From Lingula anatina (lineage: Eukaryota; Animalia; Brachiopoda): 64,000 bases of DNA. Shown here piece by piece: positions 3,521-41,610 of this stretch (position 1 is the stretch's first letter; every line of letters starts with the position of its first letter). Below the pieces are notes generated by a model. That model was given only the letters and a program-made list of their open reading frames with translations. It was not told the origin of the DNA and did not search any database. The translations under genes were made by a program, and so were the position numbers. Location: assembly GCA_051362555.1 (NCBI GenBank), contig CM120640.1:66628788-66692787 (forward strand). Direction: 5' to 3'.

Positions 3521-3696
3521 TGCTGGTTTCTCTGCATTTCCATTTGCTGTCTCTGGACTTTAAATTCCTCTTCCTTCAGCTTACTGTCTCGTTCCAACTT
3601 TTCCATCAAGAATGTTGCTGTCTACAGGTCAATAACTTGAAGCGCAAACTCGGTCATCTTTAAAGTTAACCTTTATTCATTCACGCACCAAGTAGA

Positions 3697-7214: not shown

Positions 7215-7411
7215 GAGCGCATTCCCATAGATTAAGATCGATCTTACTTGATCGACCTAACTCCCTGCAGTTAGCCGACCACACACAGAATTTAATTATC
7301 CCCTTACAGCTTTTAGTAGGCAGGACAGGCACTTAAGCCAGCTAAGCTGACAGTAATCTAGTGAGACTCCCCATGGGGATAGATCGATCTAAAATCTGTG
7401 GAAATGGGGTC
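7215..7411. mobile_element. PIF/Harbinger-type MITE with TTA target-site duplication
   Basis: Imperfect TIR GAGCGCATTCCCATAGATT / AATCTGTGGAAATGGGGTC, with TTA on both sides. Paralogous units show the empty site CAATCTTACTGTG. Confidence 0.75.
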
Positions 7412-10360: not shown

Positions 10361-13279
10361 CTGTAAAGTAGATCTTTAGAGATGCATCAGTAATAATATT
10401 TATTTTCAATAACTAATTGAATTATCGTTATTAACTCACTCAGATTTATAAAGATGTTTCTTCACAAAACATGATTCACGTTGTTATTATTATTATCTTT
10501 TAGGCCAACGGGACTTTTTCACTTCAGTGAGAGGGTAATTACGAAGAAACGCCGCTGCTACCCTATTGCCAACGTTCGCCAATTGAGTCATAGCTGGCTG
10601 ACCATGGAGAGTCCATAATAACATTGGCTAATTAAAGAACGGCATTATTTGCATAACGGTGGTAAAACGATGGTTAACGACGTTGGCGCGAAGTTGGCAA
10701 GAAGGTGGCACCGTTGGCATAACAGCGGCTAACCGCCGATAGTAATAGCTCATAACGACATTGGCCCAACGTTGGCGCGACGTCGGCAAAAGGTCGGCAT
10801 TATAGTGGCTGACCGCCGGTTATCGATAATAACGTTGGCCCGACGTTGGCGCGACGTCGGCAAAAGGTCGGCATAACAGCGGCTAACCGCCGATAGTAAT
10901 AGCTCATAACGACGTTGGCCCGACGTTGGCGCGAAGTTGGCAAATTGTCGGCATGACAGCGGCTGACCGCCGTTTATCCATAATGACGTCGGCCCAGCGT
11001 CGGTGCGACGTTGGCAAAAGGGTGGCAGACCACCGGTGGGCCGACGGCGGGCCGCCGGACACGCCGACTTCGAACCGACGTCGTCTGCCAACGTTGGCCC
11101 GACGGAGGCAAAGTCGTCGGGCCGACGTTGGCGCGACCACTCTTTGCTATCTGGGCTATGTTCTAATAGTTTAACAGTAGTTATGAATCAATTAATCGAA
11201 GCATCTATTTCAAGTATAATAAACATTAAAAGATATATTAAGTTATGTATCAAAAAATCAAAGTATCTGTTTTAAGTATTATATACATTAAAAGAAATAT
11301 AATGTAAAACTAATGGGTGATAGAGTTATTAATTCAGTTTATTTCTTGAGGTGATTTGAGGCCTGCAAGAAACTAGTACAATTAATTAATATGTTTCTGG
11401 TTATCCAAGCTCCACCTATACTCAATTTGTATGAAGTGTAACAAATTAATTATCACAATAAATAGATATACTTGCTTTAATGCATGATTAGTTTGGCATT
11501 AGTACCCATTTGGTCAGCTGTACATGTGAAGTATTTGCTCTCGCATTTCATTAAAGCTCAATGAAGTTTTAGTATCAGTTACCCGTTACATTCAATCCAT
11601 TAAAAACTGTTTTTCATTTTCAACGTCAATGTGATAATATTTGTATAACTGTCCTTTTCAATATCAAAATCCCCCAAATTTTTAAAAATTTATATGTAGA
11701 TATTTTTCAATCGCATACAAACTCTTTTTAGTATCTTAAAAATGGCAACTATATTTTGTTGTTTATCTTTTTTTTCAGCACTACCGAAACAAGATTTTCA
11801 CTTTTTTGGTGGATTTAATTTCCTTAACTATAATTTCTCTCCCAGTTTTGATATTCTAATTATTTTAAATGTCAAACCAGCTGCATCAACCCATTTTTAA
11901 ATTTTCATTAATATATATGATACAAACAAACACAAAAATAAAGAATATACAATATTGCCCATGTAGGTCAATGTCAACTACAGAATAAAAGGCAGCACGG
12001 CTTAACCCAAATATAAACAAACTTTGAAATATTGTTTCCATTACAGTTAGAGAGGAAGTCCTACATTCACAATGATACTACATCCTTGTATTTGACCTTT
12101 TACTTTTTCCCACCTGATTTAAAAATATAATAATTATCTATAAAAAATGATAACCCTTGTTTACTGCATTTCATGCAGCTTGTCAACCCCTCCCCCTTCT
12201 TTTTCCTTCCCATTCGAATGTGCTTACTCCAGCTGGTGGTACAATACCAGGAGGCGGTATCGCCTCTCTGATCCTCTAGTTTTGACCTTAAAATTGACCT
12301 TTAACCTACTTTTCACCATGAACTGAACTTTGAAAATATTTGTTCCCTTTTATCTCCAAAACTGGCAGAGATAGGTCCATAGTTACCATTGAACTTGAAT
12401 AGGAAGTCATATACTGGCAATCTAAGTGGGACCTTGAAATTGACCTTTGACCTACTTTTCATCATGAATTGAACTTTGCAGATTTTCTTTCCCTTTTATC
12501 TCCAAAACTGGCAGAGATAGGTCCATAGTTACTATTGAACTTAAATAGGAAGTCATATACTGGCAATTTACTGTGACCTTAAAATTGACCTTTGACCGTC
12601 TTTTTACTATGAACTGAACTTAGCAAATTTTCGTTCACCTTTATCTTCAAAACTGACAGAGATAGGTCCATAGTTACTATTGAACTTGAATAGGAAGTAC
12701 ACTAGCAATCTGTGACCTTGAAATTGACCTTTGACCTACTTTTTATGATGAACTGCTTTTTGCATGTTTTCTGGCCTTTAAATCTGCAAAATTGGCAAAG
12801 AAATGCCCATGGTTGCTATTGAACTTGAATAGAAATTCATATACTATGATATTGAAATTGACCTTTGACCTACTTTTTCACCATGAACTGAGCTTTGCAT
12901 ATTTTCTTGCCTCTCATATCTTTAAATCTAGCAGAGATGTCCCCATTGTTTCCCCTAGGTTTTATCTTTTGTCAGCATATATGCACCATTGACAACGTAT
13001 TTCAAGGAAAACCAATAGGCCTTTTGTCTAGAGAATACAGGAGTGATCAAGGGTATGAAAATGCAAGTCAATTCAAAAATCTGCTTGATTGTATCATTTT
13101 TAGTCATATTTTTTTGCATATTTTGAGAACTCTTGTTGATTGCATCTTATAGAGCTTGTCAAACACCAGACTGGTGATGGTGTCCCTTTTAGGAGGGGGG
13201 GGGGGGTCCATACGAATGCGCTTACTCCAGCTGGTGGTACAATATCCGGAGGCGGTATCGCCTCTCTGATCCTCTAGTT

Positions 13280-13691: not shown

Positions 13692-14126
13692 TCAACAATA
13701 CACTAGCCGAATGTAAACAAAAGGCTGTAGCTTACTGCAGTAATTTTCCCATGAGTTTAAGCTATGTAAAATCATTACAATTTCCTCGAAATCACCAGTT
13801 CTACATGAATGAACATCACCGTGATGTTTACGTAAAAGCGAATTGTCCTTTTCCATCGATATGCAATACCAGCACACCAATCCTGGAGTCATATACCACG
13901 ACAAATAACAAGAGTTCACATGACGTCCAAGATGTCTACTCAGGTCAGCACTGGACACCAGACACAAACCACACTGAACTTCTTTCCTCTGTTTCTTCCT
14001 TCTGCACTTTGAGTGGGTAGCTTCCTCCCCCTCTTCACCAATTAGGACAGTAGGATCTTCCACCAGATCAGTGTCATCATAATCAGGGACAAAATAGGCT
14101 TCATCTAGCATATCTAAATTATCCAT
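13692..14126 (-). CDS. Gypsy accessory ORF3: acidic N-terminus, basic RRKKQRK patch, two C2H2-like Zn fingers
   Basis: Open frame from the ATG at 14126, just after TTTATTTCAG|AT. Contains CGLC-x10-HLGRH and CWYC-x13-HHGDVH, and lies just before the PPT. Confidence 0.6.
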   Translation of the reverse strand: MDNLDMLDEAYFVPDYDDTDLVEDPTVLIGEEGEEATHSKCRRKKQRKEVQCGLCLVSSADLSRHLGRHVNSCYLSWYMTPGLVCWYCISMEKDNSLLRKHHGDVHSCRTGDFEEIVMILHSLNSWENYCSKLQPFVYIRLVYC

Positions 14127-14613
14127 ATCTGAAATAAACTTATACAATGGTTTACTTTCTTGAATAAAAATAACATGATAGTGATCTTTTCTTTCAAATG
14201 AATATTTGCATAATATCACATTATTAATATAATTTTACATTGTATTACGTTATTAACATAGTATTACAGCATTGCCGCATTTACTACGTACACATATTAT
14301 TCAAATGAGAAGCAAAGCAAATTATTTTTATATTAAATCTCTATGAAATATTCTATCCTCAAAATATGTAATAATAAAAGAATTGTTACCTCAACAATCT
14401 CTAATCTAACTACATGCAAAACACATGCTAAACTTTAACGTATTAGTTTCAACAGTGTAACAATGTTATGTAATATTCAATTTTTTTCATGCTCAACAAT
14501 AAAATTCAAACAAATATTTAGAAAACATATACTAACTTGGACTGTTGTTTTGATCAAATCACCTGAAATATAATAGGAAGTACAAACTATAATATACTTT
14601 ACTAAATATATCT

Positions 14614-15029: not shown

Positions 15030-15610
15030 TTAACTAATAAACAAAATATACTTCAATATAATCATTCTAAGGTAAAATCTCTTAAATCTCTTAATTTGTC
15101 TACCAAATCTTGATCTCTTTACAATTGGTTCCACCAATTGTGTTTCATTCAAATGAAAATCACTCTCTCTTTCAACAAATTTTCTCAATCTGTCATGATG
15201 TACCACATGGATCTTCCCCTTTTTATCTTTAATTGTATAGAGAGGTGGGGATGCTTTGACAACATCATATGGTTCTCTATTTAAGGGTCTAAGTTTCTTA
15301 CTTTCTCCCTTTTTATGACTTTCATCCCTCAAATATACCTTCTGACCACAAGTATATTCACTCTCTCTCAACTTTGCATCGTACAATTGTTTTTGACGTT
15401 TCTGCACACATTTTAATTTTTCTCTAGCCATTTCATGTGATCTATTTAGGCTTTCACTCAAGTTTTTCAACCATTCATGAGTCTCATATGGTATCAAATT
15501 TTCATTCACACAACCTGTTAGTAAGTGCAATGGCATAAAAACTTCTCTCCCTAACATCATCATGTTAGGAGTAAACCCTATGTTGATGCATTCACAGTTG
15601 AATGTAATGT
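15030..15610 (-). pseudogene. Gypsy integrase C-terminal fragment, copy 2
   Basis: Nearly the same sequence as 1883-2430 (MMMLGREV...VVHHDRLRKF...RSRFGRQIK). Confidence 0.9.
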
Positions 15611-15619
15611 AAGTTGAAT

Positions 15620-16028
15620 GGAAAATAAGACATAAGGCTTGGCAAGGCAGACAACTTCTGGTCTAAAATGATATTATTTCATGAAATTTGAACATCTGGA
15701 ACTTCTGAGCACCTACCATTTCAAGAATTTCAACCAAAATGACCTTTTCTTTATTTTAATTAATTTTTTCTGTAGGAAATTTATGGCACATTATTGTAAC
15801 TACAAAATTGTAACATTTAGTCCCTTATATCTCCAAAACTGGCAGAGATAGGTCCACAGTTACTATTAAATTTGAATAGGAAGTCACATACTGGCAATAT
15901 AACTGTGACCTTGAAATTGACCTTGGACCTACTTTTTATCATGAACTGAACTTTGCAAATTTTCGTTCCCCTTTATCTCCAAAACTGACAGAGATAGGTC
16001 CATAGTTACTATTGAACTTGAATAGGAA
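15620..16028 (+). repeat. HINE internal fragment (spacer plus ~1.4 units of the 146-bp repeat)
   Basis: Matches 52480-52890. Confidence 0.8.
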
Positions 16029-16034
16029 TAGTCT

Positions 16035-16515
16035 TCATTGTTGACACACTCTATTGTAAGTCGTAGTTGCCCAAAAAACAAAAGAAATGATGTCTCCATT
16101 ATTGACACACTCTATTGTAAGCTATAAGGAAGACAGAACTCAAGTAAGCTTCACTGTTGATGCGAGCTATTGTAAGTTATAAGGTACATTATTGTTGACA
16201 CAATCTATTGTAAGTTATAAAGTAGTCAGAAAGCGAGTAAGTCACACTGTTGACAATCTCTATTGTAAGTTGTAGTTGCCCAAAATTTACTGTTTGGAGC
16301 GTAAACCATTTAGACATATATTTGTTACGCCTGTTTGAGTACAAGGGCACTTGAGTGATCATATATGGACTGTGCCCACTGCGCGTCTTAACTGAACTGT
16401 TTGTATGGGCTCTTATCGAAGCAAACTTCAGTGCAAACGCACTTTTACCTATAAGATAAGACGAGACTGAAAATCAAAACACAAGATTTTCAAAAAAAAA
16501 AAAAAAAAAAAAAAC
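16035..16515 (+). repeat. Short tandem repeats (TTGTTGACACACTCTATTGTAAGT, ~5 copies) followed by a poly(A)-ended segment; possible retroelement 3' UTR
   Basis: Motif at ~16038, 16100, 16155, 16191 and 16247; A-run at 16492-16514. Confidence 0.45.
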
Positions 16516-16585: not shown

Positions 16586-16631
16586 AAACAAACAAACAAG
16601 CAAACAGACAGACAGGCAGACAGACAAACAG
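16586..16631 (+). repeat. (ACAA/ACAG)n microsatellite, left flank of the YR element
   Basis: AAACAAACAAACAAGCAAACAGACAGACAGGCAGACAGACAAACAG. Confidence 0.9.
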
Positions 16632-18321
16632 TCGAGGTTTTTAGGTCTGTTTTTCATTGTGAGGTTCTTGTTAGTACCAACCACACTTATGGGAAGCTAT
16701 CCAACTTGTGGGGCTACAAATGGATACTCCTAATGGGAGGTACTTGTGGGAGAGACCGTTTTTGTGGGACTTCTCAGGTTATTAACTTATGCAGGCTTAC
16801 CCGCTTGGATAAACTGCTTAGATGGAAAATTTACTTAACTGAATCACTCTCTTGAAATAAAGTCTATATTATCATTATTATTGTCTTGTCTAACTTGTGG
16901 CATTACCAGAGAGTAGTTGTGGTGTTTCTACATTCCACTTAATATACACTACCTTATATGCAAAATTAATGAGCGGCAAATAAATTGGATGAGAGAAATG
17001 TAGCAATTATGTGTTTCAGTAATGAGAGTAGTGCAAAAATATGCAGGTTTAAATTGTAACTATTATATTAATAAGTAACCACGCTACCATGAACTTTAAA
17101 AACAAAATTAATCACTGGGAAATGCAGAAAAAATATAATCTCCATACAGTGATTCAAAGCAAACAAATCCATTTTACACATTCACAATAATAATAATAAT
17201 ACCATTTTAATAAAAAAAGTCACTATGCTACCATGAACTTTAAAACAACAATAGTGTGAAATCGTTGAGACATTGGAGAGTTTATGTTACTCATGCTTTA
17301 TTTTAAATGTTCAGTTCAGTAACCATTCACATCGCTTATGTCAGTACAGTAAATGGACTAGTCAGCAGTTCAGCATGTCAGCATGACAGCAAGCAAGCAA
17401 GCAAGCAAGCAAGGTACATAATCTAGGAAAGAAAACAATAAATAAAATGAATAAATACATAAAGAAATAAATAAATACAGGAAACTATAATTTACTAGAT
17501 ATATTGAACATTACATTACATTAAATCGGTTATATACAGCGAGACTTGAAATTTGCTATACCTATACAATGAACACAAATGATATGAAGTTTACCTTATA
17601 ATGCAATAATCATAATTAAAACATTATATACTGAATTACAGGAAGGGTTTACAGTTGATAATTAAACCAATGCGTTCTCATATTTAACATTTATCGTATT
17701 TCATATTAATGACCACACCCTATCAGGTGCTCTATCTTATATACCTATTTTTTTCACCTTTATAATTTATACAGAAAACTTATAAATACACTATGCAAAC
17801 ACATTTGATAGTATAAACACTTACATTATGATTTCTCCCTTTGAACTGTTACAATACACTTCACTACGTTGGGAAATACGGTTAACTGCAGGAGAGACCC
17901 TTCTTGTACAGATTCTATTCACATAAAAAGGCGACATTTCAGGAAAAGTATAAAAATACATAAAATATTGCCTTTTTACGCGCCCTCTTTTCATGGTGAA
18001 AGCACAGGGTGTGATTTTCTTAAATTACATAATTACAAGGGTCCGTTGTAGTTTCATGTGGTGACACTTAAAAAGCGGGACATACAGTATTTAATGAAAT
18101 AGACAATGGCGTTACTTTGATGCCATTCCTAACTTGTAAACGCACAAGTATAAAAACTTAAGAATAAGACGTTTTTAGTCTTAGACAAATGCTCTTAACA
18201 TCTTAACACTAAAGTGTGCGGTACATAAGTCTAAATAAAACTTATTTGGTTCCCGGTCTAATTATACTTTATGCAATCGTAATTCATTCATATCTGATAA
18301 CTGAACAAGGTGAAACAATTT

Positions 18322-21300
18322 TCAACGTAACATTCGATCTATCTTGTTTTTAATTGCACTGGCAGTAAGTTTGCCAGGGTATAGGTCTTTGAATACAGCG
18401 CTTCCTCTGATTTTGGTGGCGATTTCCTTCAGACCTGGCAGCTTCTTGCGGTCAAAACTCTGAGGAAAGAGGTTTCTCAACTCATTCTCTTCTTCTTCTT
18501 CTCTCCAGTTATGCCTCTGCACAGGTTTGCGCTTCTTCCGCCCGCCTCTACTCTCTCCATCTTCTAAAATAGACAAAATGATAATTAACATTCCAAGTCC
18601 AAACTGGTTCTATCATTCTTAAGGAAAAAGTTCTCGAACCTGAGAACTAGTTGGGGCTATTCCATGTGAGATACTAGTGAATATATCATATTGATATGTA
18701 CATGACATTACGGTTATGTGCCATGAATTTCGAACAGTAGAAAATAATTAAATTTGGGAAAAGATCGTTCTGGCCGAAATTCATGAAATGGAGGTGCTCA
18801 GAACTTCCGAAAGTTCGAATTTCATGGAAATCTGTCAATTTTGACCGGAAGTTGTCTGTTCGTCGCTAGGCCTTCTGTTATCTTCTCTCGACGATCTATT
18901 TAGAGTTACCATAATGTATGATGTGTGAGTGTCGGTAATTGCGACCAAAGGTATACACGTACTTTCACCCGATCACTGTGTATGGCCCATAGATAGAGCG
19001 GTACTGTTGTTTAGGGCCGCAAAACAGCATCGTTATCAGTAGTGTCGTTTTTCAAAAGCGATTTTGGCAGCCAGAAACTAGTGTCTTTTTTCAAAAATGA
19101 TCCTGGCGCTCAGAACGGGAGTGGACGGAGGGAGAGACGGCCGACGATTAGCGTCTGCCACGGCCAGATAACCTTTACTATGGAAGCTTAGTGTTACCGT
19201 TGCTCCTTTCCGTGCACTGACACCGAGACGACAGCCGATCAGTGTCTATGGCGCACGTGCAGGTAGCCTTCATCTGCGATAAGTGTCTTCCGCGACCAGG
19301 TTCGTTGCCTTTACCGTTAAAGTCGGGCGGAACTTTACGCGCGAATGCGTCCTCATCTCGCCGTTCGCGGGTCGGTGTCTCTGATGCATACGTAGCCTTC
19401 CCTGCAGAAGCCGGCCTCAGCACTACGACCTCTCCTCCGCACAGGTAGACTTCGCCACTGCCCGGAATGTGTATTACGGTCTCTCTCCGTCGTGCGCTGC
19501 GACCAAGATGACCGCTGATTGTTGTCTGCGATCAAATATACTAGGTTTGGGGGGGGGGGGGGGTGCAGGGCCGTTTTTTTTTTTTTTTTTTTCGCTCAGG
19601 CAACCCAATCTTAACTCATTGTCCCCTGCAGTGACTGCTGCACGATCCCCTACAGCCATTAACACCAAATCTGGCCACCACCATGTGGTGGCGCCACTGT
19701 CAGCACTCTCCTATATCCCTGAGGAAATTCAATATGGCCTTTTTCTAGGTCTGTTGTTTTGTTTGTTCCAAATTTTCAGGGTTCTTAAGGCATGAAATTG
19801 GTATAATATGAAATTCTTTATAACTGGACATATTCAAAATATTGTTATTTATTGAATGGGGAAGATCAAGTCCGAATTATTTGGTCTATAAAAATTGAAC
19901 AATGAATATAAGTTCAACAACTGTTTATAAATACGGTATATAAAATATACATCATAATACTTCTTTAGATTATATCAACAGGTACAAAAAAAGACAAAAT
20001 TCTACAAAATATAATTAAAAGATGAGCATCAGATTACAAAAAAGTATATTTATTATCTATATTATGCAGTTGTGATAAGATAAGCATCAACTTAAAAATA
20101 CTACATGAACCCTGACACCTAGACATGCTTTTAGTTGTTCTTTCCACTTAGAGTCATTGTATGTTGCATATGCATTTATATTTTCCAACAAATTGTTCAG
20201 TATTTTATCAGTAAAGAACAGTTTTTAAAGTCTAGTTCGTCTTTGTCACCCGGCAGTTCATGTGTGAATCCAGGTAGTTCACCACAGAAAAGCTCCTTGT
20301 CCACCTCCCACAGATCGTTTTCCCACTGACTTCTTCTAAAATCTTCACTAATGCTGCCTAATTCACTTTCAGACTATGTCTGTAAAGTGTTATTCAAAAG
20401 AAATATAGCTCAAATTATTGCTGTCAGACTCACTGTCACTAACAAATCCCGAAAATTCAGACCCAGAGCTCTCATGAAAAATACTCTGTATTTCCTCCAT
20501 ATGTAGATTTCCCGCAACCCTCAAAATGTTTACATTTTGTTCTATAGTACTCTCCTTTTGATTGGCCAAAAGAAAAGCAACAACCAATCAGAAAATGAGC
20601 TATTTAAAACCTACCTATCAAAGTTTCTTTCTCATGCCGTCATATGAAGTCGCTAGGCAAGGGGCCCGCCATATTGGATGCCGTCATATGACGGCAGTCG
20701 GGAATGGGTACTATTAATATTACGACGTCAAATGACGACGCTCGGGATAGAAATAAGAAAACATTGTCGGCAAATGACGGCGGTAGGGGACAATGAGTTA
20801 ACCAGCAGCAGCAACTGATTTCCTGGCGCATAGTTGCGTCAATGTACGCATTTGAAAAGCGTGTACGTTTTGTCATTGAAACCATCTTCAAACAAACGCG
20901 AGAGATAGGTAATCTAGAGTAAACCGAAAAGGCAGTTTTTATATTCGTTCAAGGGACTGGAAGATCGTCAATGGGAGATAGTGAGCGATCTGAGCGCGAC
21001 AATAAGCCAATTTCCACACTAGTAGTTCATGGGACTTCGTTACTATATTCGTCAGCAAGAGATCGTCAGCGATTCGAGCAAGCATAGAAGCTTGGACTTT
21101 TTGTCCATGCTAGAAGGCAATTTTCATGTAGTCAGCAGGATATGGTTTGCTGGTTTGCGACAGGGGCGTAACCAGGCATACGCACGGATACACTGTGCGT
21201 ATATAATTTTTTGGCCAACCATGATATTATTCTTTATAAATCTAGTGTACTTTTCAAGGAATATCATCGAAAATCCCCTTCGATTATAAGTTAATGTCAC

Positions 21301-24300
21301 CTGAATGTACAAATTCTCTGTATAATTTATATATGCACCATTGTTCTGACACCCTTCTCGTTTGCTTTCACAGAACTGAGGTAAACAATACTAGTTACCA
21401 TCTGAATTCCGATCTTAATCGTCCATCTAGCTGGAACTTGCTTTACCTCTTAATTAGAGGGTAAAGTGCCCTTCAGCTCACAGGTAGCTTTTGTCTTGAG
21501 TGTATCGAACGTGATATTTATCTCAGATAAAAATCTACCTGTGTGTTATTTTCAAAGAGCTGCTCCAGCAGACCTGGGGGCACTAGATAAATCTGATCGT
21601 CGGGCTAAACAAGGAGCCAGAGAAACAAAGGAAGATTGATTTTTCCTGCAAAGTTTCAAAGAATTTTGACACGGACTTGATCCAGCTTAACCCTCCAAAC
21701 TAACGGGGTGGCATGGGCAATTTTTACAAAATTTACAAACAATTAAACTTAGATATATTACAATTTTATCCTTTAATATAATTTTGGGAGGCATGCACCC
21801 GCATGTAAGCTGGGTGATGTCAGTAAGCCCCTAGTTAAATAAATATACTCTTATGAGCAAGGCTTTTCCCAGCGAACCGTCCAGCCGTCATTTGGACGGC
21901 CGCTGACATCACCGGACGGCCTATATTTTCAAAGACGGCTAGACGGCTTGCGACTTTTTTTAATGACGTCTTGACTTGTCGGGACAGCCGTGGACGTTGT
22001 AAGAAATTTTCTTAGAGTAATTTGACGTACCTAGCTTTTATGATGCGTCACAGATGAATGGTACTACTTTGTAGTGTACGCTGATATTCAGTCACGACGA
22101 AACTACTTCCTAAAGCTTACAAAACACAATAAAATGTTTCTATGAACTTTAAGATACACATTCCAACCGTATGCAGCAGTGACAAGAGTGACCTTCATGC
22201 GGTACAAAACACTAAGCAAACTACAGGCCAATTTGTGAAAGGGGACACCTTCCGGACCTTCATACGCACGGCAACTGACAAAGCTGATTGACAAAAAGGA
22301 AAATTTCAAATTTTCAGCGAGAGATCGTTTGCAATCCGAGAGAGACCAGGAGGCAATTTTCATATTTGTTAAAGAGACTTCGTAAGCCAAAGGGCGAGAC
22401 GAGAACGCAATTTTCGTATCGTCAGCGTCGCAATCCGAGTGAAACGAGAAAGCTCACACTCGTTCAGTGGCTTTCGTTTGCGGCAGATCGTCAGCCGGAG
22501 ATCGTTCTCGATTGTTTTTAGCCCTTCATCCCTCCCCATTGGAATTTATAATTTTTAAAAATATTTTTCATTTCATTTGTACATTTCAAGGGACTTCATT
22601 AGCGGAAGATCGTCAGCGGGAGATCGTGAACGATCTGAGCGAGACAAGAAAGCAATAATGGTAATCTTTATTGCAGCTCTTAATATTGCTCCAGGGCTAG
22701 ACACTAACTTTTATGAGCACCTGTCCTTCGGACAGGTGGTCATAAATTTGACCTGTCCGATTTTCAAACCAACCTGTCCAACAAAACCAATATTTTTTTT
22801 TCTATTCATACCCAGAACTTTGTAAATTAATATGTGTAGTCATACATTTAATGTATTTATTACCAAAATACTCAATCAAATGAGCTGGGAAAATGCACCT
22901 TAAAGTGAATTTATTTTCAGATAAAAAGTTGTTTTTTCATACTTGTGAACTCCTGAAGATTAAATCTTGCATATAAGTCTGATTTAACATAGTTCCAATC
23001 AGGGCTTCTCCTAGGATTTGGGGTACAGGGTCTACTAATTGTAAATCTGCAATTTGATAACAGATTCACATGAAGTTTAACCACAGCTAAAAAAAACCAA
23101 AAAAAAAAAAAAAAAAACCAAAAAAAAAAAAAAAACCTGAGCGGGAAGTGGGGAGGGGGTTCTGTTAAATTAATTTTATTAAAATATTCAAAATTAATGA
23201 TATTTGAATATAGTTCAATGAAAAGTTAAATAATATTCATTTTATAATACTTAACTTTTATTTATGTTAAGAATTTGACTTCTTTAGGGGTTATCACGTG
23301 TTTGATTTTTTTTAAATATATGAATTAAATAATATCAGTATAAAAAGTTCCCCTTCTTTTTATTTAAATTCTCATATTTGTTATTACTACCGTAATTTCT
23401 TCCTTACATCAATATCACACTGGTATATGACAGCAATGTTAATTTATCATATTCCAGCACTAATTTTTTTAACTGTAAATAACATAGGTGCTAGAGTCAT
23501 TAAAGAAAACATCATACAAAATTTCAGGTCATATTTTGGCAAATAAACAACATTTCAACAAGATCATCAGTCCAAAAGATTTCACTTTCTATAGTGAGTA
23601 GATAGCATACAACGTATTTGATTGACAGGCAGTATGTTGCCTTGACAACGAACTAGATATAGCCAGTTCATCCAGTTCAATCTGGCTTTGTACCCAGTAC
23701 AGTACCTGTGTAGTTCCTGTTTTTGGAACGGTCTTTATTACCAAAGCACGTAGATTTTGAACTAAATAATATTTAGTAAAGAACCTGAAATGTGAATAAA
23801 TTTTGTCTGATGAAGTTCTGGAGGGTGTTCACTTTCATAATTTGGCGGTAAGTTTACTCAGACTTCGTTTTGCGACTGCATGTGTTTTGTGCCAAAAGTA
23901 GGTCATTCTATTCAATGCCGTCTAGGAAGAGAATATAAGACGTTAGGATGCAACAAAAAAAAAAAAAGATTTTTTAAAGACTTTTGCTCCAAATTTCTCA
24001 CAAAACATGACCTGTCCGTCGGACAGCCAACCCTGCAACTTCACCTGTCCGAACTGAATTTTAACCTGTCCCGGACAGGCGGACAGGCGCTAATGTCGAG
24101 CCCTGTGCTCTTTTGTTCTGTTACTGAAGTCTCTACTGTTAACAATGCTATTGTGCGCCTCAGCAAAACTACCGATCGCTATCTCACACCGAATACTGCG
24201 GTGAAGAAACAACAGCCCGACAGTACAACTCTTAATAGATTCTCCTGTTATCTGAATGAATGGATATGACGATGTTGTTTAGCGTCCTAAACTAACTGCA

Positions 24301-27300
24301 CTGATCGTTATCTTGCACCTTGGGCCGCACACGTAGTACTCAGGTAAAGGTATGCTAGGGCAACATTGCCGACTGTTAGATCTTTATAAGCGCGAGAATA
24401 GCCCGGTGGCCGATTTTAAGGTGTACGAAATTCACGAAATCAAGATTGCGCAAAATTGCTTACTGGCCGAAATTCATGGTCCAGAAAAAACTCCAGACGG
24501 CCGATTTTAAGATCGTTCGAAATTCAAGAGCCGTTCGAAATTCATGGCACTTTACCGTACTATTATAGAAGCTTAACATGAACTATATAAAAAAGCTAAA
24601 TTTGGTCTTATGAATCAACCTCTTGGCTTATTCCCTTCCTATTTATTACAGCTTCTGTTCCCTACTATCACAAACAAAACCTACCTTCAAAGTCAAAAAC
24701 AACAGGTGTAGCAAGTTCATCATCCTCATCATATGGGTGAGGCATAAACTCTGGTTCATCAGCATTAACGTCTTCCTCAGGGGCATCAGACACAGAAACG
24801 ATGTCTATAAAATAAAACAAACATAAAGCTATGCAGTCACAAATTATATAGTAAAATTTTTTTTTTCATTTAGGCCTAAGAAAAAAAGTTGTTTGTTTCC
24901 TGTTACATGGTAAAGAAAAATTAGGGTAGGTCGGTAGGGATAACATTTTATTTTATTTTATTTTTTTACTCTCTCAAATCACAGGGTAGGCTACTTCTTA
25001 TTTTATTTTATTCAATGTTCCTATGTATCTTATCTGGTATTTGACATATATGAAATAAAACAATATATTATCTCTGCCAAGAAACTAACACACTATGTGA
25101 TATTTTATAGCTCCAATATTATTGATGAATATTCCAATATGGCATTGCATTGAATACTGTACAGGAATTAATTTGACAAATGACTAGATCTACTTAGTAA
25201 CACACTGAATTTCCGCCAAACTTTCGTAGTGAATTTCAAATACCATTATAGTTACTATTAAAACAAGAGCTGTCAGAAAGGACAGCAAAGCTCGCGGGGT
25301 ATATATAAATTTGTTAGCATGTAAATAACTTGAAGTATATAAATACAACTTAAATGATACTCGTAATTCTAGAGATATAACACCTTAACGCAATTTAAAA
25401 AACACACAATTCTACAATATTGCAGATGAGTGACTCCCAGCTAATTATTTCAGCTTATATATTTCTCACTTACCATTATATTAAATATAAAAGCAATATT
25501 CAGTCAGTACTTACGTGCATACATATTTGTCAAGAGAGAAATAAATACTATTGTAGTCGGAGGATGAAGCAAAGATTATTTAAAATTCTCATTATAAAGT
25601 AGCAGTAAAATAAAAAAAAGCTACCGAAAAGGAGGCTATATATGGGGGTCGGTCGGAAGCCAAAACTTTTTTTTTGCTAGTGGCTTTAAAATGTTATGGG
25701 TCGGGTACTTTTTCATAGGGATGGTCGGGTAACAGGAAACAAACAATTTTTTTTCTTAGGCCTTATTTCATCATGTTATGTGTTGTGTATAAGTAGGTCA
25801 GCTTATGACGTCACCATATCGCGAGAGCATGAGTATCTCGAGAGCGTTAGTTTAGACAGACACTGGGAGTATGAACGGATAGGAGACTGAGTTTTGTTTT
25901 GGGACTTTTGAAGGAGAATATATTTTTTTTTTTGGAACCTATTTACCACTGAACCGACACTCATATTTTCTACTGGAACTTGCATTGTAATTACTGTGGG
26001 ATTTCATCGGACACTTTCACTGAACTTTGAGCCGATTTGTCTCCATTCACTCTCCAGTCGACGGATTCACATCGGACTTTCACACAGGACACTTCAATGC
26101 TTTCAGATAGGTTTATTTGTGTATTAAGAATAGCTTATTGTTATTGTCATTAGTTTATTTAGTTTTAATAAAATATTAAAACTTCTTTAAATCTTTTGTC
26201 ATTGATTTTTGCTGGCATTGGGTACTCTGACCCGTAACATATGATTTAAATTAATTACAAAAATATCAAATACAACTGTATCATAGATAACATTGCAGCA
26301 ATAATCTGATACATAAGTAAATAGAAATATATTCTATTTGTGTTTTACCTGCAAAACCTGCCTTGTTTAACTTCTCGATGTCTATTGAGTTCATCCCTTG
26401 CTTCCAGTAATCTCCAACCTGGTTTGTGTCCTGGAGAAGCAGAAGCTTACTAACATCTAACCGCTCAATAACACTACTATACTGGCGGTAGAAATCACGG
26501 TGTACGTCCCATGTATGGCCCATGTGATTTAGTACATGTACCATGTCATTCTTATCCAGAGACAGAACCTGAAAAATATTGATATTCCATTTTCTAAATA
26601 AAAGAAATCCAAAACTGCATTCTTAAACCATATTCATTGAGATTCAAGATTCCCCTGAAATAATTAATGATGCGTGACTTTGAAGTAACTTACTTGAGTA
26701 ATGCAAGCCATGTACTTCTGCAACCTTGTAGCAACGATCAACTCTGGTCTCTCCAGGTTTCCAGCAGCCGTTACTGTGTGCTTAAGTGCATAATACCCTC
26801 GAAGTATTGAGCCGTCTATGAAAAGAAAAAAAAAGAAAGAAAATAAGACCATTTTACCTGGTTAACATAATATCTACAAGATAGAAGATTTAACCCGTAT
26901 CATGAAACAGTCTTGTCACATAAATATAAAGCTTGGCAAGTCATCCCCTCAGTATTATCTTGTTCTAACTACATCCTCCAAACTTATTGAGTTTTTGATG
27001 TGTGGAATAGGAAAATGTTCTATCTAAACTTAATTAGACCATTAAAGCTGGTATGGTTTCCCATATAAACAATATTTTTTTCTTATTTGTTCTAAATAGA
27101 AGTGAATCAATTTGATAATGGTCTAAGTCCTCATTATAGAGTTGTATTTTGTTATATAAATTATTTGATCAATCTCATCAAAATATTGTTCCCTCAGTAT
27201 TATCTTTATCTATGTCTTTAAACTGGTCATTTGAGGAAAATGAGTGTCATGAGAAAATGGGAAAACAATATGGTCAATTAGACATAGAACATTATTCAAT

Positions 27301-30269
27301 TTGCATATGGTGATATATCAAGTAGAATTACTCCCAATCTAAACATTTTCAAATATACACAAAAAGGAAAATAGTTTTTAGACATTTAAAACTCTTAAAT
27401 ATATTTTAAAAATGTAAAAACAAAAATTGATAAAAAAATGAGATTATTGAATTTTTAAATTCAATTTTCTCAAAACATTAGTTTCTAGACATAGAACAAG
27501 ATAATACTGATAGGACTAAGTGTTAGGATAAAAAACAATAAATTCACAGACAGCAACCTCAAAAGTATATGTCTGTTCAATTTTACTACAATAATTTATC
27601 TTAAAAAGACAAATACTTCAATCAGGTAGTTGGAATCTATTCATTTAAGAGCTGCTGGTAATACAGAGTAGATCTACTCACTACTGTTGCTCGTAAAGAC
27701 AAACATGCTCTCCACATGGAACTTCTTTCTGAGCTGTTCGTTTGCGATATATCCCAATGGTTTGATGCAGTCCCGAGGGATAATGAGGGGTACTTTTCGG
27801 TCTTTCTATAAAGAAATATGAGGAAGATGAATATGTAGACAGATTTATTTCCATAAGATAAAGATATTAAGTGCTACAAACCTCAAAGAACTAAATCAAT
27901 ATCTATTGAAAATGATTCCAAAAAATATGAATAAGCAAGACCTCTTACTTTTCCTCTAATTTCCACCACTTCTTGGGATGTCACCAATTTCAGTTCGACT
28001 TCATTTAAATGTTCTTTGAGGGTTTCGTGTGTTCCTTCAAGCCCCTTCGTCCGGTTAGTGTACTGCTTCATCCTGTAAAATAAGAAAATGGAATTCCAAA
28101 TAATAGCTCAAAATGAATGATAATGATACACTAAAAAAGAATAACATCACAGACAGAAGTTAACCGGAAAATGAGAGCAACAACCACATTCTTAAAACAG
28201 GCCTTACCTAAGTGTTTGAACTTCCCCTGGTCGACGTCTGTTGTAACTTATGAGTCTTGCCAGGACGAGAAGTTGTAACTCCCGGAAATCATCATGAGTC
28301 TGTGGTACTTTGAGGTTTTCTGAACTGAGTTCACCCTTCAGATATTCGGCGACCTTCACTATGTCCTCTGGTATAGGTAGTTCAATCTTCGTATTCATCC
28401 TTCTCTCCCTAAGGACATGTCGTGCCCGTTTCTTCACGTCTATACACCACTTATCCCTAAACTTATCCATAAATCTCTTGGTAACTTTTCTGTTTTTTTC
28501 TCCTCGTTCCTTGTCGTCATCATCAATGGCTATTGATATCTTGGCATGACACATTTTGATTATATCATAAGATAATTTAATTGCGTTGCTTGGAGCCTGT
28601 AAGTCCTCTTCATCATCATCACAATCTTCCACATTTCCACACACTTCGAAGGCGGCTGTAACAAAGTTCTTGTACTGCAATGGGTGTATAGCATCAAAGA
28701 AGGATAGATTTTTCTGCAGCTCATCAGTTTCTTGCAGTTTTCTCAGTTCAATGAGGAGTCTAGCAAGCAACCTCATTACCGAACTGGCGTAGTACCGCCT
28801 CATTGCTTTGTTTCCTATGTTGCGGTCCAAGCAACCATTCCCCATCTGAACAATTAGGGGGTCCGTTTTAGCAACTCTTGCGATCTCATCATTCTTCAAA
28901 ATTGTATACACTTCGTTCACTAGGTTAACCGACGCTTTAAGATCTATCCTACCAGCAAGAATATCAGACTGGAGTAGTACCTCTGAAGTCGATTCCTTAG
29001 GGTTATCAGAATTGTGACACACACAGGTTTTACGATGCCTGTAGAGAAGTTGCTTTCTCATCCATACCTTGCAGTGTGGACAAGGACCGTAGTCCTTGAC
29101 ACTCCATTCCTTACCTTCACCAGAGGACGGCCTCCTGCCTGGTATGAACATTCCATTTTCTTTTTTGATCGTTTTTAGGTTGTGTTTGTGGTTGCCACGG
29201 TAACGAATGATGTCAATCTTTTTGGATCTTTCTGTTGATCTAGACGGAAGTTTTAGTATTTCTTGAACTTCTTCCTCATCAGCATGTAAATGTAGGTGTT
29301 GTTCAAAGTTAACAAAGACTTTGTAACAGTAAGGACACACATTCAACTTGTTGTAAACGCGTTCATTTTTCTTTACATCACCCTTCTTGGAGGTAATGTC
29401 TTTTATAACAGGTACTACATAGATACCCACTATTTCACTAGCGAAAAACTTCTCTGGGATTTTACTTTCATCAAATTCAATATCAGCTGGCTCCTGAGAA
29501 CTGAACTCGTCAGGGAGATCACAGGATTTCCTGGAATTTCCACTGTATTTCATCTTTTTCTCCGGAATTTCATCATTATCATCACTATCAGCTGACTCCT
29601 TTTCAGGATCAAAATCAGGATCTCCATCACTATCACTATCACTGTCCGTAAAGCTTATGTCAATGATTTGGGAGGGAGTGGGGTGTTCGTTCTCTGTCTG
29701 CATGTTGACATCATCTCCTTTTTGCTCTGTATCACTGCTCATGACATCTTGGGGAGGGGACGGTGTAATGAGAATGTGGTTTTGGTCGCTCTGCTGTGCG
29801 GTGCCATGTCTGATGTTGGTGGGGTGTTCATTCTCTGTCTGCATGCTGACATCATCTCCTTTCTGCCCTGCGTCCCTGCTCATGCCATCTTGGGGAGGGG
29901 GTTGTGTAATGAGGCTGCGGTTCTGGTCGCTCTGCTGTGTGGTGCCATGTCCGATGCTGGTGGGCTGTTCATTTTCTGTCTGCATGCTGTCATCATCTCT
30001 GTTCCCCAAGACACCATGGGGTGGTGTAATGAGGCTGCAGCCTTGCTTGCTGATCTGTGTGGCATCATGTCTGATGGAGTGTTCGTTCTCTGTCTGCATG
30101 TCAACATCTACGTTCTGCTCTGCGTTTCCATTTTGCCCTACGTCACCGCTCATGCTGTCAGGGGAAGGAGGTGGTGCAATGAAGCTGTGGTCTTGCTCGC
30201 TTTGCTGCAAGGCATCCTGAACATCTGCCTCGAAGGCCTTCAGTGTTGAGGGCTTCTTTTTCCATTTTT
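18322..30269 (-). CDS. Spliced tyrosine recombinase, Crypton-like (~1003 aa from these exons; N-terminus further upstream)
   Basis: GT-AG exons 30269-28208, 28072-27949, 27805-27682, 26815-26694, 26568-26349, 24804-24685 and 18563-18322 join in frame to TGA. Motifs: YNRRRPGEV, RGKKDRKVPLII, ATRLQKYMA, HMGHTWDVHRDFYR, CPYC/CPHC Zn fingers, and a C-terminal Myb/SANT-like WREEEEENELRNLF..LPG. Confidence 0.9.
22230..22650 (+). repeat. Dispersed repeat with internal AGATCGTCAGCGGGAGATCG subrepeats (other copies at 31165-31630 and 20900-21080)
   Basis: Aligns directly with 31175 onward (AAAGGGGACACCTTC...). Confidence 0.75.
22692..24105. mobile_element. hAT-like non-autonomous element with a 5-bp TSD
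   Basis: TIR CAGGGCTAGACACTA / TAATGTCGAGCCCTG, TGCTC duplicated at 22687-22691 and 24106-24110, and subterminal ACCTGTCC repeats. Confidence 0.8.
24873..25762. mobile_element. PIF/Harbinger-type MITE in a YR intron
   Basis: TIR GGCCTAAGAAAAAAA..TTGTTTGTTTCCTGTTAC / GTAACAGGAAACAAACAA..TTCTTAGGCC, with TTA TSD. Confidence 0.8.
25781..26239 (+). mobile_element. Solo LTR (459 bp)
   Basis: TGTT...AACA ends, 4-bp TSD TATG on both sides, and AATAAA at ~26167. Confidence 0.75.
26946..27515. mobile_element. MITE in a YR intron
   Basis: Inverted TCAGTATTATCTTGTTCTA / TAGAACAAGATAATACTGA. TSD not resolved. Confidence 0.55.
29680..30210 (-). repeat. Coding minisatellite in the YR N-terminal region (~4 units of ~42-52 aa)
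   Basis: QQSxQxxxLITPPP..D.MS.D.GQ.GDDV.MQTENEHPT repeated in frame. Confidence 0.85.
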
Positions 30270-33200
30270 CTAAAAAAAAAAGAACAAAAAATATGCATGA
30301 ATTGTTGCTGGGCTATTCACCAGTGTTCACTAGAATAGATGTATACAATTGTTTCTATACCAAAACACCACTTACAAATTGTGTAACTTTAGTAAAATCA
30401 AGCAGGGCAAAGTCTGATGTTTATAAAAAGTAGGATAGAGGGGTACAGCTACAGGATTAATTTCGAAGACACTTTAATAGCCTTGGTTTATAATCCTTAT
30501 GGTAGTTAAACGACTATTATCGGTGCGTTAATTATAGGGAATTAAACCTTAAGCCGTTGGGACCCAGCAGCGATAAATACTACTCTAACTCGGCCTAAAT
30601 TTACTCAGCTCGCTTTTAGCCACCCACTGTGAGCAGGACACCATCATCAATAGAAAAGTACTCCTGCACTTTCATTTAGATAAACAGGGTGATAAACCCG
30701 ATGGGGTGAAAATACCGGCCTTTGTTAGTCAGAACAATAGCAGCCCTCGGATCGCGTCGCGTATTTCTCTAATTAAATGCTCTCAAATTGCCTTATACTG
30801 TTGAATAACCACGAAGAAAAAATAATAACTGAAAGTCCTTGAATAATCCCACCTTTTATAATACTTTTTTTTACATTTCAAATGACGAACATTTTGCTGT
30901 TGCGAAACACGCTAGTAAAAATCGCGCGCTATCTTTCCCGACTTGCGTTTATTCAATTTGATGCACTATAAAATTAAGAAATTTAAAAGTTATAATTATA
31001 TCATTATCAAGGTATTTTATTTCAATTTAAAAAAAATAAATAGTGTATGTATCACAGCTGCATAAATTTTCATCATTATTCTAGTTCTAGTCGTACACCT
31101 TGATACACCGCAGTAGGGTTATAAGATTGCAGTCATTTTAATTATTCGTATGACAAACAAACTGCCAAATTATGAAAGGGGACACCTTCAGGACCTCCAT
31201 ACATAAGGCACCTGGCAAAGCTGATAGACAAAAAGGCAATTTTCAAATTTTCAGCGCGAGATCGTTTGCAATCCGAGAGAGACGAAGAGGCAATTTTCAT
31301 ATCTGCTAAAAAGACTTCGTTAGCCCAGGGAATTATATCCGATAAAATTGCCTGGTAAGCCAAAGAGCAAGACGAGAACGCAAGTTTCGTATCGTCAGCG
31401 GGAGATCGTTCGCAATCCGAGTGAAACGATAATGCAATTCTCATATCCGTTCAAAAGCTTCTGTTTGCGGAAGATCGTCAGCCGGAGATCGTTCTCGATC
31501 TAAGCGAGACGAAGAGGCAATTTTCATATTCATTCATGGGAATTGGTTCGCAAAAGAGTGTCAGCGGCAGATCGTTATCGATTGTTATTAACCCTCCATT
31601 CCCATTGATATTTATTATTTTATAAAATATTTTTCCACTTCATCACACTCCTACCCCATTTGGACAGCCTGTATCCCAATCCTAGAAAAAAGGCTTGGTT
31701 CTGGGTGAAATGATGTAATGGAACTTAATTGAATAGCCGCAATATATTTAATTTTATCTGATGATTTTATTACTGGTGAAAACTTAGCTATGATATTTGG
31801 CGAATTAAATTTATTTTAAATTTACATTTAACCGTACCTGGGAATTTTGAAAATCTGTGCTTAGAATTCTAAAAGGTCAGGTTACGCCCCTGATCCTTAA
31901 CCTACCCCTCGCTGGTTAATTACTAGTTTACTTAACATCACAAAACGCAGTAGATCACTTTCCTGAAACCGCACTAATACGTGTATCAACAGATTTGCTC
32001 GCGGGTTTATGTAAAGGGTGGTTGATTTTAACTTGTGTATAGGCAGAGCTTAGGTTTTGCGTAGCTCGTGAAGTTTATATGCACTTTTTCTCAAAAATGT
32101 TTTAACATGTCCTGCCCCACCAGTCAGCTTTTGTTCATTACATCCGGGATATAGCGGTTTTGTTCATGTCTCTTAAATATATGAGTCGTCGTAGAAACTT
32201 CCAACACTTTACTTGCTTCATGAAATTCTGCCCTTCCATATCAAAGTCGAACATTCTGCGTGTGTTGCTAGACTTTGTTTTGATTATTTTTAGCGACACA
32301 AGTTGCCCTTACGCGTTAACAAGAGTTGCAGCTCTTTGTTAGTAACGAGCTAATTGCACTCTAAACCTACCCCTGGCTGGTTAATTACTAGTTTAGTAAA
32401 CAGTACAAAATGCAGTACAAAACGAAGATCACTTTCCTAAAACAGAAAAAAAAATTCTGTATCAGTTCATATATGCTGTCTCATTCATCTTCACTACACA
32501 AATATGAGCGGTACATGTAGCTGTCGTGTGTACTGGGTAAGGGGGTGGCAGTGAAACATTTGTTATAAATATAGACACAAATAATGTTCGCATCCTTCAC
32601 CCCCTGGTAAATAATTTAAAAAGTGGGTGAAAGATATGTATTGTAGGGTGGCGTTCCGTATTTGTTTTTATTATCTTATCATTTTCTTTTGTGTGAACGT
32701 TCTTTGTCATGAAGTGCGTTGAGTCAGATGGTTTTATCCCCCGAAAAGCTGAACGATTCACTGTCCATCTCATGCGTGTGACAGTTGCTTCTTATATATA
32801 TTTGTTTTAATTTTGTTCGCAATGTATGTATATTATTTGGTATACGTTGCGGTGTACAGAATGTGGTCACAGACATAAATATTTGCATCGTGATAGACTG
32901 GGCATCGAGATCTAGGTGGAGAAGGCAAATTAGGTTTATAACGAAGTTTATGGCCACAGTAATTAGTGGTCGATTTCTCACCTCATTCTCTTCAACCAGA
33001 GGTACAATGTAGTTACAGATAACCATCGCCTGTCTTTATTTCAGGGACATTAGTGCTGGCTCATGACAGCATTGATAGTTTCCTACTCTTTTGTCACTTC
33101 CTCTTCCATTGTCTGTTGAGGTATGTCCGATGAATACCGATAAGGACAGAGATATCAGCACGCATATAACAATACTGCTGGAAGGCTCAAAATTATCACA

Positions 33201-38967: not shown

Positions 38968-39197
38968 CTGGAAAAGAAATGGGGTAGGGCTTAGCACAAG
39001 TGACTGAAGACAGGTGACAATGGTTTTCTAGCCTTGGTGCTTTGAGTCAAATGTGAAGTCATTGATCTCATCCACCATCAAAAGCAAACCCTGGCACTGA
39101 ATTGATATCACAAGAACTGTTGATGTACATATGAATTAAAATAATATTTGGTGATTTTTGTATACTTCAAGGTCCAGGATAATCTCTTTACGAATGA

Positions 39198-39874
39198 AAG
39201 TTTTATTCGAACAGACATATACTTCTGAGGTTGCTGTCTGTATATTTATGAGGTTTTTATCCTAACAATTGTAAGGCTTTATATGTGGCTGGGGATCAAT
39301 CTTTTCAATTTCATTATCAAACATTCATTGGAACAGACATATATTTCTAAGGTTGCTGTCTGTATATTTATGAGGTTTCTATCCTAACAATTGTAAGGCT
39401 TTATATGTGGCTGGAGATCAATCTTTTCAGTTTCATTAACTAACTTTCATTGGAACAGACATATACTTTTGAGGTTGTTGTCTGTATATTTATGAGGTTT
39501 CTATCCTAACAATTGTAAGGCTTTACAGTATATGTGGCTGGAGATCAATCTTTTAAATTTCATTACCAAACTTTCATTCGAACAGACATATACTTCTGAG
39601 GTTGCTGTCTGTATATTTATGAGGTTTCTATCCTAACAATTGTAAGGCTTTATATGTGGCTGGAGATCAATCTTTTCAATTTCATTACCAAACTTTCATT
39701 AGAACAGACATACTTCTGAGGTTGCTGTCTGTATATTTATGAGGTTTCTATCCTAACAATTGTAAGGCTTTATATGTGGCTGGGGATCAATCTTTTCAGT
39801 TTCATTACCAAACTTTTATTCGAACAGACATATACTTCTAAGGTTGCTGTCTGTATATTTATGAGGTTTCTATC
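39198..39874. repeat. 122-bp tandem repeat, ~5.5 copies
   Basis: GAACAGACATA at 39209, 39331, 39453, 39580, 39702 and 39822. Confidence 0.95.
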
Positions 39875-41310: not shown

Positions 41311-41610
41311 GTGACCGCTAATCGACCATTCACAGCTCGCCTTGTTTCTGAGGCGCGAAACCTCACAATTTTTTAACAGAAAAGGAAGTACTTGAATGTT
41401 GCCATTTTCATGGGACTTTTGAAAACGGACAGACAGCACTGTCCGAAAATCTTGTGAGGTTGGATTTAAAAACGAATTTTGTGAGGCTTTTAGGGGGAGA
41501 TATGGCTTTTTAACTTTGGGCACTTGTGGGAAAACCTCACAAGTCGGTTACAACCGCACAAGTACCTCCTGTACCAGTCAGAAACCTTACAAATACCCTC
41601 TGGTAAGGCC

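Follow-up and report, generated by a model that had tools for sequence, protein, structure and literature searches.

A spliced tyrosine recombinase gene of Lingula anatina, possibly part of a recently crippled Crypton-type DNA transposon

The stretch of DNA considered here, 64,000 nucleotides of Lingula anatina (assembly GCA_051362555.1, contig CM120640.1, positions 66,628,788 to 66,692,787; hereafter the window), carries on its minus strand a spliced gene for a tyrosine recombinase (YR). The reading that we favor, with somewhat more confidence than doubt, is that this gene belongs to a single copy of a Crypton-type (CryptonV-like) DNA transposon: an element of ~25 kb, recently crippled, and seated in a CAAA/CAGA microsatellite. 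This reading draws on: the exons and their frame; the intron positions shared with relatives; the insertions nested in the introns; a glutamine, Gln802, in the active site; the fold of a homolog; and the repeats that bracket the gene.

Exon structure of the recombinase gene

Seven exons on the minus strand join into one frame of 1003 amino acids (aa), in which the only stop is the terminal TGA. The six introns are all GT-AG and measure 135, 143, 866, 125, 1544 and 6121 nt for introns 1-6, respectively. The chain is real and no chance construction, since the spliced model matches independently predicted scallop, oyster, sea cucumber and sea urchin proteins end to end. Its product is 33-37% identical, along its length, to predicted proteins of Pecten, Saccostrea, Holothuria and Lytechinus, and homolog P0043 aligns at 35% over model residues 218-1003 (E 2e-138). 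An initial annotation of this DNA had proposed a gene of about 1000 aa in seven stop-free exons that join in phase, one splice crossing a 6.1-kb intron, and the chain bears this out. That annotation had also described a 668-aa open reading frame (ORF) as just one exon of the gene. The long ORF is indeed exon 1, although it measures 702 aa from stop to stop and the length of 668 was not reproduced.

Residue numbers here and below are those of the seven-exon model; the nine-exon model described later adds 60.

Exon 1, 30269-28208, minus strand: final helix of the PWWP-like domain, tandem repeats with a 47-aa unit (29678-29999), acidic tract, a pair of zinc-finger-like motifs, core-binding domain, and box I NRRRPGE, with Arg I likely R679 (28233-28231)
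Exon 2, 28072-27949, minus strand: RGK at its end, with the catalytic Lys728 (27951-27949)
Exon 3, 27805-27682, minus strand: beta strands of the catalytic domain
Exon 4, 26815-26694, minus strand: box II, with Thr799 at the His II place and Gln802 (CAG, 26720-26718) at the Arg II place
Exon 5, 26568-26349, minus strand: His III H828 (26517-26515) and catalytic Tyr Y837 (26490-26488)
Exon 6, 24804-24685, minus strand: acidic linker; the same exon is present in the related locus L003
Exon 7 (coding exon 9), 18563-18322, minus strand: end of the acidic linker, three-helix C-terminal domain and TGA stop; homologous tails exist

The motifs RGKK (726-729, across exons 2 and 3), MGH (826-828) and FYR (836-838; both in exon 5) lie where they had been claimed to lie. 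The tandem repeat unit of exon 1 is 141 bp in a BLAST of the window against itself. Separately, the linker that follows the N-terminal domain consists of tandem repeats in many members of the family, with a unit that looks different in each; examples are window 29678-30207, P0025, P0047, P0048, P0056, P0058 and P0273.

Recombinase fold and active site

No recombinase model matched the window exons or their homologs in Pfam, PHROGs or PDB sequence searches, and in the Atlas unnamed eukaryotic clusters came first, with a phage-integrase set at 0.90. The evidence for a fold comes from a homolog, P0018, which is 36% identical to the window protein and was modeled with AlphaFold from a 119-sequence alignment (predicted local distance difference test score, pLDDT, 83.9). 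When this model is compared to PDB structures, XerA, XerH, Cre and other integrases are on top (best E 1e-3). Superposition on XerH gives Z 14.4, with 300 aligned residues and a root-mean-square deviation of 4.3; topoisomerase IB, which likewise lacks His II, scores Z 12.9. As modeled in this homolog, the family has a tyrosine recombinase fold comprising core-binding and catalytic domains, in line with the initial assignment.

The conservation of catalytic residues was counted over 99 homologs of the catalytic domain. Arg I (R679, 94/99) and the Glu (E682, 94/99) are both kept within NRRRPGE, with the same spacing as in XerD GLRVSE; these two were assigned by motif, and the local HHalign alignment stopped short of box I. 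The catalytic Lys (K728, 93/99) is present and aligns to XerD K172. His III (H828, 94/99) and the Tyr (Y837, 92/99) are nine residues apart, like XerD H270 and Y279. His II is absent, its place being taken by Thr799. This is family-wide, as the position is Thr in 68, Ser in 9 and Val in 9 of the 99 homologs; in the available text of PMC2943603 the His II site is described as tolerant in Cre.

The Arg II position is different. It is occupied by Arg in 96, His in 2 and Lys in 1 of the 99 homologs, whereas the window protein has Gln802, encoded by CAG. HHalign to XerD/XerC sets ATRLQKY on PHVLRHA and places Gln802 on R247, in agreement with the matches for Lys and His III. According to the portion of PMC2943603 available, Arg II is 99.1% conserved among YRs, and in Cre only the Lys and His substitutions at this position gave recombination in vitro. 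Because Arg II is near-invariant and so restricted in Cre, the enzyme is likely crippled by the change to Gln, and we predict that it cannot jump on its own. Thus the catalytic set, whose Lys, His and Tyr had been recognized, is incomplete at a residue that the initial annotation missed, and its suggestion of recent mobility is doubtful as far as the copy's own enzyme is concerned.

Beyond the catalytic domain, the P0018 model has three confident helices in the C-terminal tail (residues 770-834), and the tails across homologs keep a W...F...I pattern. Eleven such tails had no Pfam match and no convincing PDB match, leaving the Myb/SANT identity once given to this tail unproven.

Inherited introns and nested insertions

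The introns of this gene are inherited family introns, and only their size is local. All six follow the same codon, in the same phase, in the metagenome locus L003, a relative whose protein is 63.5% identical to the window protein over 515 codons; there the introns are 158-484 nt long. By eye, the first five are also found in L001 and L004; L004 has the sixth donor and L001 lacks the sixth intron. Moreover, of the 153 homologs that carry box I, 63 stop no more than 25 residues from it, mostly at the position of intron 1, as is expected when a shared intron is left unspliced in gene calls. These shared positions rule out intron gain, so the "heavy intron invasion" proposed earlier applies to intron length alone.

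The expansion of the introns (17.5 kb in total, against 3.2 kb of coding sequence) reflects insertions, of which two have defined boundaries:

18709-24559, in intron 6: insertion of 5,851 bp with 27-bp terminal inverted repeats (25/27 matching) and TA at both ends
24872-25763, in intron 5: insertion of 892 bp resembling a miniature inverted-repeat transposable element, with 35-bp inverted repeats (97%)

The larger insertion accounts for 96% of intron 6 and has other elements nested in it, for example one bounded by 17-bp inverted repeats at 19611 and 20801; intron 3 contains repeat fragments. When the window is compared to itself by BLAST, the exons are free of interspersed repeats, the 141-bp tandem repeat of exon 1 being the only repeat in them. 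The earlier claim that every nested transposable element is intronic therefore stands for elements with repeats within the window, which is as far as this comparison reaches.

Two exon-like frames within the insertions were rejected. One, at 23560-23930, lies in a nested insertion and has no tblastn match to the YR family. The other, an acidic frame with a good acceptor at 20240-20385 (minus strand) inside the element 19611-20801, opens with a stop and also has no such match. A 122-bp tandem array occupies 39197-39874, in the first predicted intron, and one inverted partial unit of it lies in intron 3 (27518-27578).

Putative element ends and target site

The gene is bracketed by two microsatellites, each with a cluster of short motifs just inside it:

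16586-16631, plus strand: (CAAA/CAGA)n microsatellite, likely the left (3′) flank and target site
16657-16768: cluster of four TTGTGRG motifs, likely subterminal binding sites at the 3′ end of the element
41330-41124, minus strand: putative promoter and non-coding first exon with donor GTGAGT, read by eye
41362-41542: cluster of five TTGTGRG motifs, likely subterminal binding sites at the 5′ end of the element
41612-41778, plus strand: (CAAA/CAGA)n microsatellite, likely the right (5′) flank and target site

Runs of at least three (CAAA/CAGA) units occur in the window only at 16601-16628 and 41630-41777, in the same orientation and on either side of the gene. TTGTGRG matches the window 17 times (18.6 expected by chance), and 9 of these 17 matches are in the two clusters just inside the microsatellites; no other 300-bp stretch of the window holds three. 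The motif was first spotted by eye and then tested by a scan of all 7-mers with one ambiguous position. This unbiased scan recovers the TTGTGRG ends and both ends of the intron-6 element; what else it picks up is mostly repeat-family copies. In a shared-7-mer control with a G/C filter, which excluded the TTGTGRG class, the two ends score 3, and 1 of 392 random pairs scores at least 3; of the two tests, the unbiased scan is the better one. The two ends share inverted matches of 13, 11 and 23 bp and are not copies of each other; there are no long repeats between the putative ends, and at this one locus the same microsatellite lies on both sides. Just inside the right end, the promoter-like stretch and its donor point toward the gene, as judged by eye. 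We take its CCAAT, GCGCATGCG and GCCAT motifs to be promoter elements.

These features suggest an element of 24,980 bp, at 16632-41611, with its ends read from a single locus. Within these bounds there is no ORF longer than 142 aa besides exon 1 and its antisense frames. This would make the YR the sole enzyme, with no reverse transcriptase, as judged from ORF sizes and a partial Pfam scan of the small ORFs.

Upstream exons and the N-terminal domain

The gene probably extends beyond the seven exons, since exon 1 opens at a phase-1 acceptor. Several homologs have, close to their N-terminus, a motif that the first residues of exon 1 (KKKPSTLKAFEADVQDAL) match. Two further coding exons are predicted upstream:

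Exon A, 38967-38855, minus strand: ATG start and first half of the PWWP-like domain
Exon B, 38681-38617, minus strand: donor at 38617 or 38623, either in phase with exon 1

Joining exons A, B and 1 as predicted keeps the frame across 8347 nt and yields nine coding exons and 1063 aa. With these two extra coding exons and their predicted splices, the likely start of the gene moves upstream by 8.7 kb. The 85-residue N-terminus of this longer model resembles that of P0289, an oyster protein, over residues 5-80 (E 1.3e-9 among 320 proteins) and that of P0070 (E 5e-4); when the P0070 N-terminus is searched blind against the 64-kb window by tblastn, exon A comes first (E 0.005).

Three weak lines on the N-termini of homologs, all short of firm thresholds, point to a PWWP-like domain. 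In the Atlas, the best match reaches 0.87, and the ten best named matches all belong to one family or clan. In a PDB profile search the best match is a PWWP (E 0.017). Finally, a single-sequence model of P0275 (mean pLDDT 56.7) has PWWP chains as its top ten matches (E 0.008); P0275 is itself tied to the window N-terminus at only E 0.04. The domain order given earlier (repeats, acidic tract, zinc fingers, YR, acidic tract, Myb-like tail) is roughly right and lacks the PWWP-like N-terminus contributed by the two predicted 5′ coding exons.

A small exon candidate at 30417-30380 was ruled out, as its junction with exon 1 would carry a stop. A SET domain takes the place of the PWWP-like N-terminus in P0046, P0125, P0162, P0198, P0199 and P0207 (5 of 39 homologs in one scan); a tblastn with P0046 found no match to such an upstream domain in the window.

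The family and its relatives

Homologs are numerous: 5,173 representatives of 50% identity clusters at E ≤ 0.001, and 905 at E ≤ 1e-30. Named members are found in molluscs, echinoderms, cnidarians and insects, and are returned as "uncharacterized" or "hypothetical" or are called after a fused domain. Among IMG/VR sequences, 18 matched the search pattern and none was a relative. Copies from a single genus fall in scattered parts of the tree. P0273 and P0274, two LOC identifiers of one oyster species (LOC128187249 and LOC128159402), are 99.87% identical over 1513 aa; the records that carry them differ in length (61.8 and 60.5 Mb), and duplication in the assembly is possible. L001 includes a 5737-bp tandem duplicate (643-3891 and 6638-9628, 99.95% alike) whose second copy lacks the 5′ part, and L006, L011 and L014 are internally deleted or rearranged copies of an L001-type relative in other contigs. 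By these sequence comparisons, the family behaves like a transposon.

Selection and expression

Between the window gene and the related locus L003, the proportions of nonsynonymous (pN) and synonymous (pS) differences are 0.24 and 0.76, the latter saturated, and pN is well under pS in all seven exons. Purifying selection has therefore acted on the lineage, which is the part of the earlier proposal of purifying selection that holds; pN/pS does not speak for the window copy itself. The exon-1 core has 25 conserved columns, and the window protein departs from none of them; of 18 such columns in the catalytic domain it departs from two, at Gln802 and at Cys807, the latter common to L003. Its branch is not long (0.27; FastTree, 47 sequences, with 3 intended sequences absent from the core set). 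The ratio of observed to expected CpG is 0.65 in the window and 0.66 in L003, and thus indicates no special depletion.

The survival of the frame was compared to neutral simulations that assumed 0.1 indel per substitution. In these the frame remained whole in 45%, 17%, 2% and 0 of 400 runs at 0.2, 0.5, 1 and 2% divergence, respectively.

RNA was surveyed over 27640-30300 in four runs from the same species, reading 6-25% of each. Among 41.4 million records only 5 reads (4+0+1+0) fell on this region; none was 99% alike to the window and none contained a splice junction or a loose end, in a region that covers the junctions of introns 1 and 2. This near-silence counts mildly against a broadly expressed host gene and is silent on the germ line and the embryo. 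It also leaves the earlier idea of domestication without positive support.

Proposed mechanism

The mechanism that would account for the element is drawn from the YR family and from the Crypton model as set out in the accessible part of PMC3212892. Recombinase subunits would bind the TTGTGRG clusters at both ends through the zinc-finger-like motifs and the C-terminal helical tail, while the core-binding and catalytic domains cut through a 3′-phosphotyrosine. The element could then leave as a circle and re-enter at a microsatellite, with the PWWP-like tip tethering the protein to chromatin. The introns would have arrived with the element. Other transposons may then have accumulated inside these introns because, as we propose, selection removed insertions into exons for as long as the lineage depended on its own mobility. 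Arg II would have been lost recently, in the window copy.

Several observations weigh against this account. The assignment of Gln802 to the Arg II position involves a weak alignment to XerD (HHalign probability 6.7%, E 0.0054, two-sequence template, with the Tyr itself unaligned). Moreover, nine substitutions of Cre Arg292 besides Lys are weakly active in vivo, as stated in the part of PMC2943603 available. The ends are those of one locus, and among 15 related loci neither TTGTGRG clusters nor microsatellites were found, most of these loci stopping short of the ends. No protein near-identical to the window gene was found in the homolog searches. The inserted repeats are ~75% alike to other copies within the window and may be old, as may the insertions that bring the introns to many times the coding length. 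A frame that seldom survives neutrally implies that the copy either died very recently or is still selected by the host. With respect to expression, two RNA runs without any read showing the organism are no test, and the tissues of the runs are not given.

Alternative explanations

The main rival, which is unlikely but has more in its favor than the others, is domestication: the host would have retained what was once a Crypton recombinase to bind chromatin or DNA without cutting, much as with the DUF3504 genes. Such a protein would consist of the PWWP-like reader, the zinc fingers, the core-binding domain and the helical tail. A frame that is whole across 17.5 kb of introns with several insertions, none of them seen in exons, fits this explanation, as do the unchanged conserved columns of the exon-1 core and the branch of ordinary length. 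The promoter-like stretch upstream, read by eye, and the loss of Arg II, which all DUF3504 genes share in the part of PMC3212892 available, fit it as well. However, the DUF3504 genes have lost the Tyr too, whereas here Tyr, Lys, His III and Arg I are all kept. Domestication is further opposed by the five reads in 41.4 million with neither a junction nor 99% likeness, by putative element ends that look well preserved, and by close relatives that keep Arg II and exist in multiple copies.

It is distinctly improbable that the 25-kb unit is still mobile, with Gln802 a private allele, an assembly error, or a defect complemented by Arg-bearing copies in mixed tetramers. CAG is one base from an Arg codon (L003 has CGA), all else in the gene is intact, and non-autonomous Cryptons are known (PMC3212892, in the part available). 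Further, the four reads of RNA run X1 are 90-99% alike to the window, from which another allele or copy would be transcribed at a low level. Against this, no near-identical copy was found and expression was near nil in the runs read, the reads surveyed (27640-30300) excluding codon 802.

It is very improbable that segmental duplication spread this gene as an old member of its family and that the microsatellites and TTGTGRG motifs are small repeats of other origin (e.g. Helentron-type) rather than its ends. Non-autonomous repeats that carry microsatellites are frequent in genomes of this kind, tandem and rearranged copies are seen at L001 and L006/L011/L014, and TTGTGRG was first picked by eye, but the two ends cannot be aligned as copies of one repeat (matches beyond the microsatellite are ≤23 bp) and sit symmetrically inside the only two such microsatellites, with the promoter-like stretch, facing the gene, just inside one of them.

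Relationship to known elements

For the favored reading, a single crippled transposon copy, CryptonV is by analogy the likely home of the element, since microsatellite insertion has been reported for some families of this Repbase group (PMC8869645 in the part available, citing Kapitonov and Jurka 2012). Like the window element, CryptonV is a YR-encoding animal DNA transposon, and microsatellite insertion is what the window flanks suggest. The likeness is one of description: the accessible portions of the papers naming CryptonV give no protein architecture, introns, or PWWP or SET domains. The literature searches turned up no account of a Crypton recombinase fused to a PWWP or SET domain; Repbase Reports and the Kojima 2020 review may have one.

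In the part of PMC3212892 available, Cryptons are YR-only DNA elements that lack long terminal repeats and whose proposed mobile form is a circle. CryptonA and CryptonI resemble the window element in being DNA elements of animals that have one YR gene and lack terminal inverted repeats. However, they are 1.2-2.3 kb when autonomous and lack a C-terminal domain, whereas the window gene encodes ~1060 aa with extra N- and C-terminal domains over a ~25-kb span. As those elements are short and without a C-terminal domain, the window element is, from its sequence, not CryptonA or CryptonI as described there. DUF3504 had no match in the 22, 39 and 9 homologs scanned. The DUF3504 domesticates (KCTD1, ZMYM2/3/4, QRICH1, KIAA1958 and WOC) share with the window gene a YR-derived fold joined to chromatin- or DNA-binding domains and the loss of the second Arg. 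In contrast, they have lost the Tyr, have conserved orthologs and are expressed, while the window gene keeps its Tyr and has an expression near nil.

XerH, XerA, Cre and lambda Int share the core-binding and catalytic fold of ~300 residues and the R-E-K-R-H-Y layout of the family. They differ in their low identity (10-17%); the window family comprises spliced eukaryotic genes with accessory domains and Thr/Ser at His II. Endogenous nimavirus YRs (PMC10871703) are also animal-associated, C2H2-bearing or multi-exon, and target repeats (a telomeric microsatellite, 28S rDNA), but this too is a likeness by description, and no viral genes were recognized in the window. Starships of fungi are large YR-driven elements with short direct-repeat ends (PMC13465315, in the part available); the window element, by contrast, has no DUF3435 match and no cargo genes and owes its size to passengers in introns. 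The same portion of PMC13465315 describes intronized and intronless copies of fungal CryptonA, for which similar questions of mobility versus domestication arise.

Significance

On its own, this locus is of modest interest: an intact-looking, probably crippled transposon gene. Animal tyrosine recombinases are, however, poorly cataloged, and the window family has 5,173 representatives, with no match to a Pfam recombinase model among the members scanned. If the ends and target are true, they provide recombination sites that can be tested and the architecture of a sequence-specific integrase with its own chromatin module; they would also bear on how transposons choose safe sites and offer a possible source of site-specific integrases. 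Domestication, if true, would be an early-stage parallel to KCTD1/ZMYM. A broader picture, doubtful as a whole, combines these themes: a large Pfam-invisible animal family of intron-rich, microsatellite-targeting YR transposons that swap N-terminal modules (PWWP-like reader or SET writer), in which this 25-kb copy is at the first step of domestication, with Arg II lost and the rest under host selection.

In the homolog searches, longer proteins that include exon 5 were represented by 4 of 17 candidates at 58-63%, none of them near-identical to the window gene.

Other elements in the window

A short exon and a 144-aa frame at 43234-43740 (minus strand) had no firm match in Pfam; we take them to resemble the remnant of a Harbinger-type transposase. 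Two related, broken Gypsy-like integrase remnants lie at 1883-3575 and 15030-15662 (minus strand; Integrase_p58_C, E 0.035). Dispersed repeat elements contain arrays of a 146-bp satellite-like unit at 5709-6225, 12283-12938, 15794-16047 and 52683-54744. Finally, a 180-aa frame with a C2H2-like motif (E 0.0066) is located at 13692-14234 (minus strand), 2.4 kb outside the putative left end.

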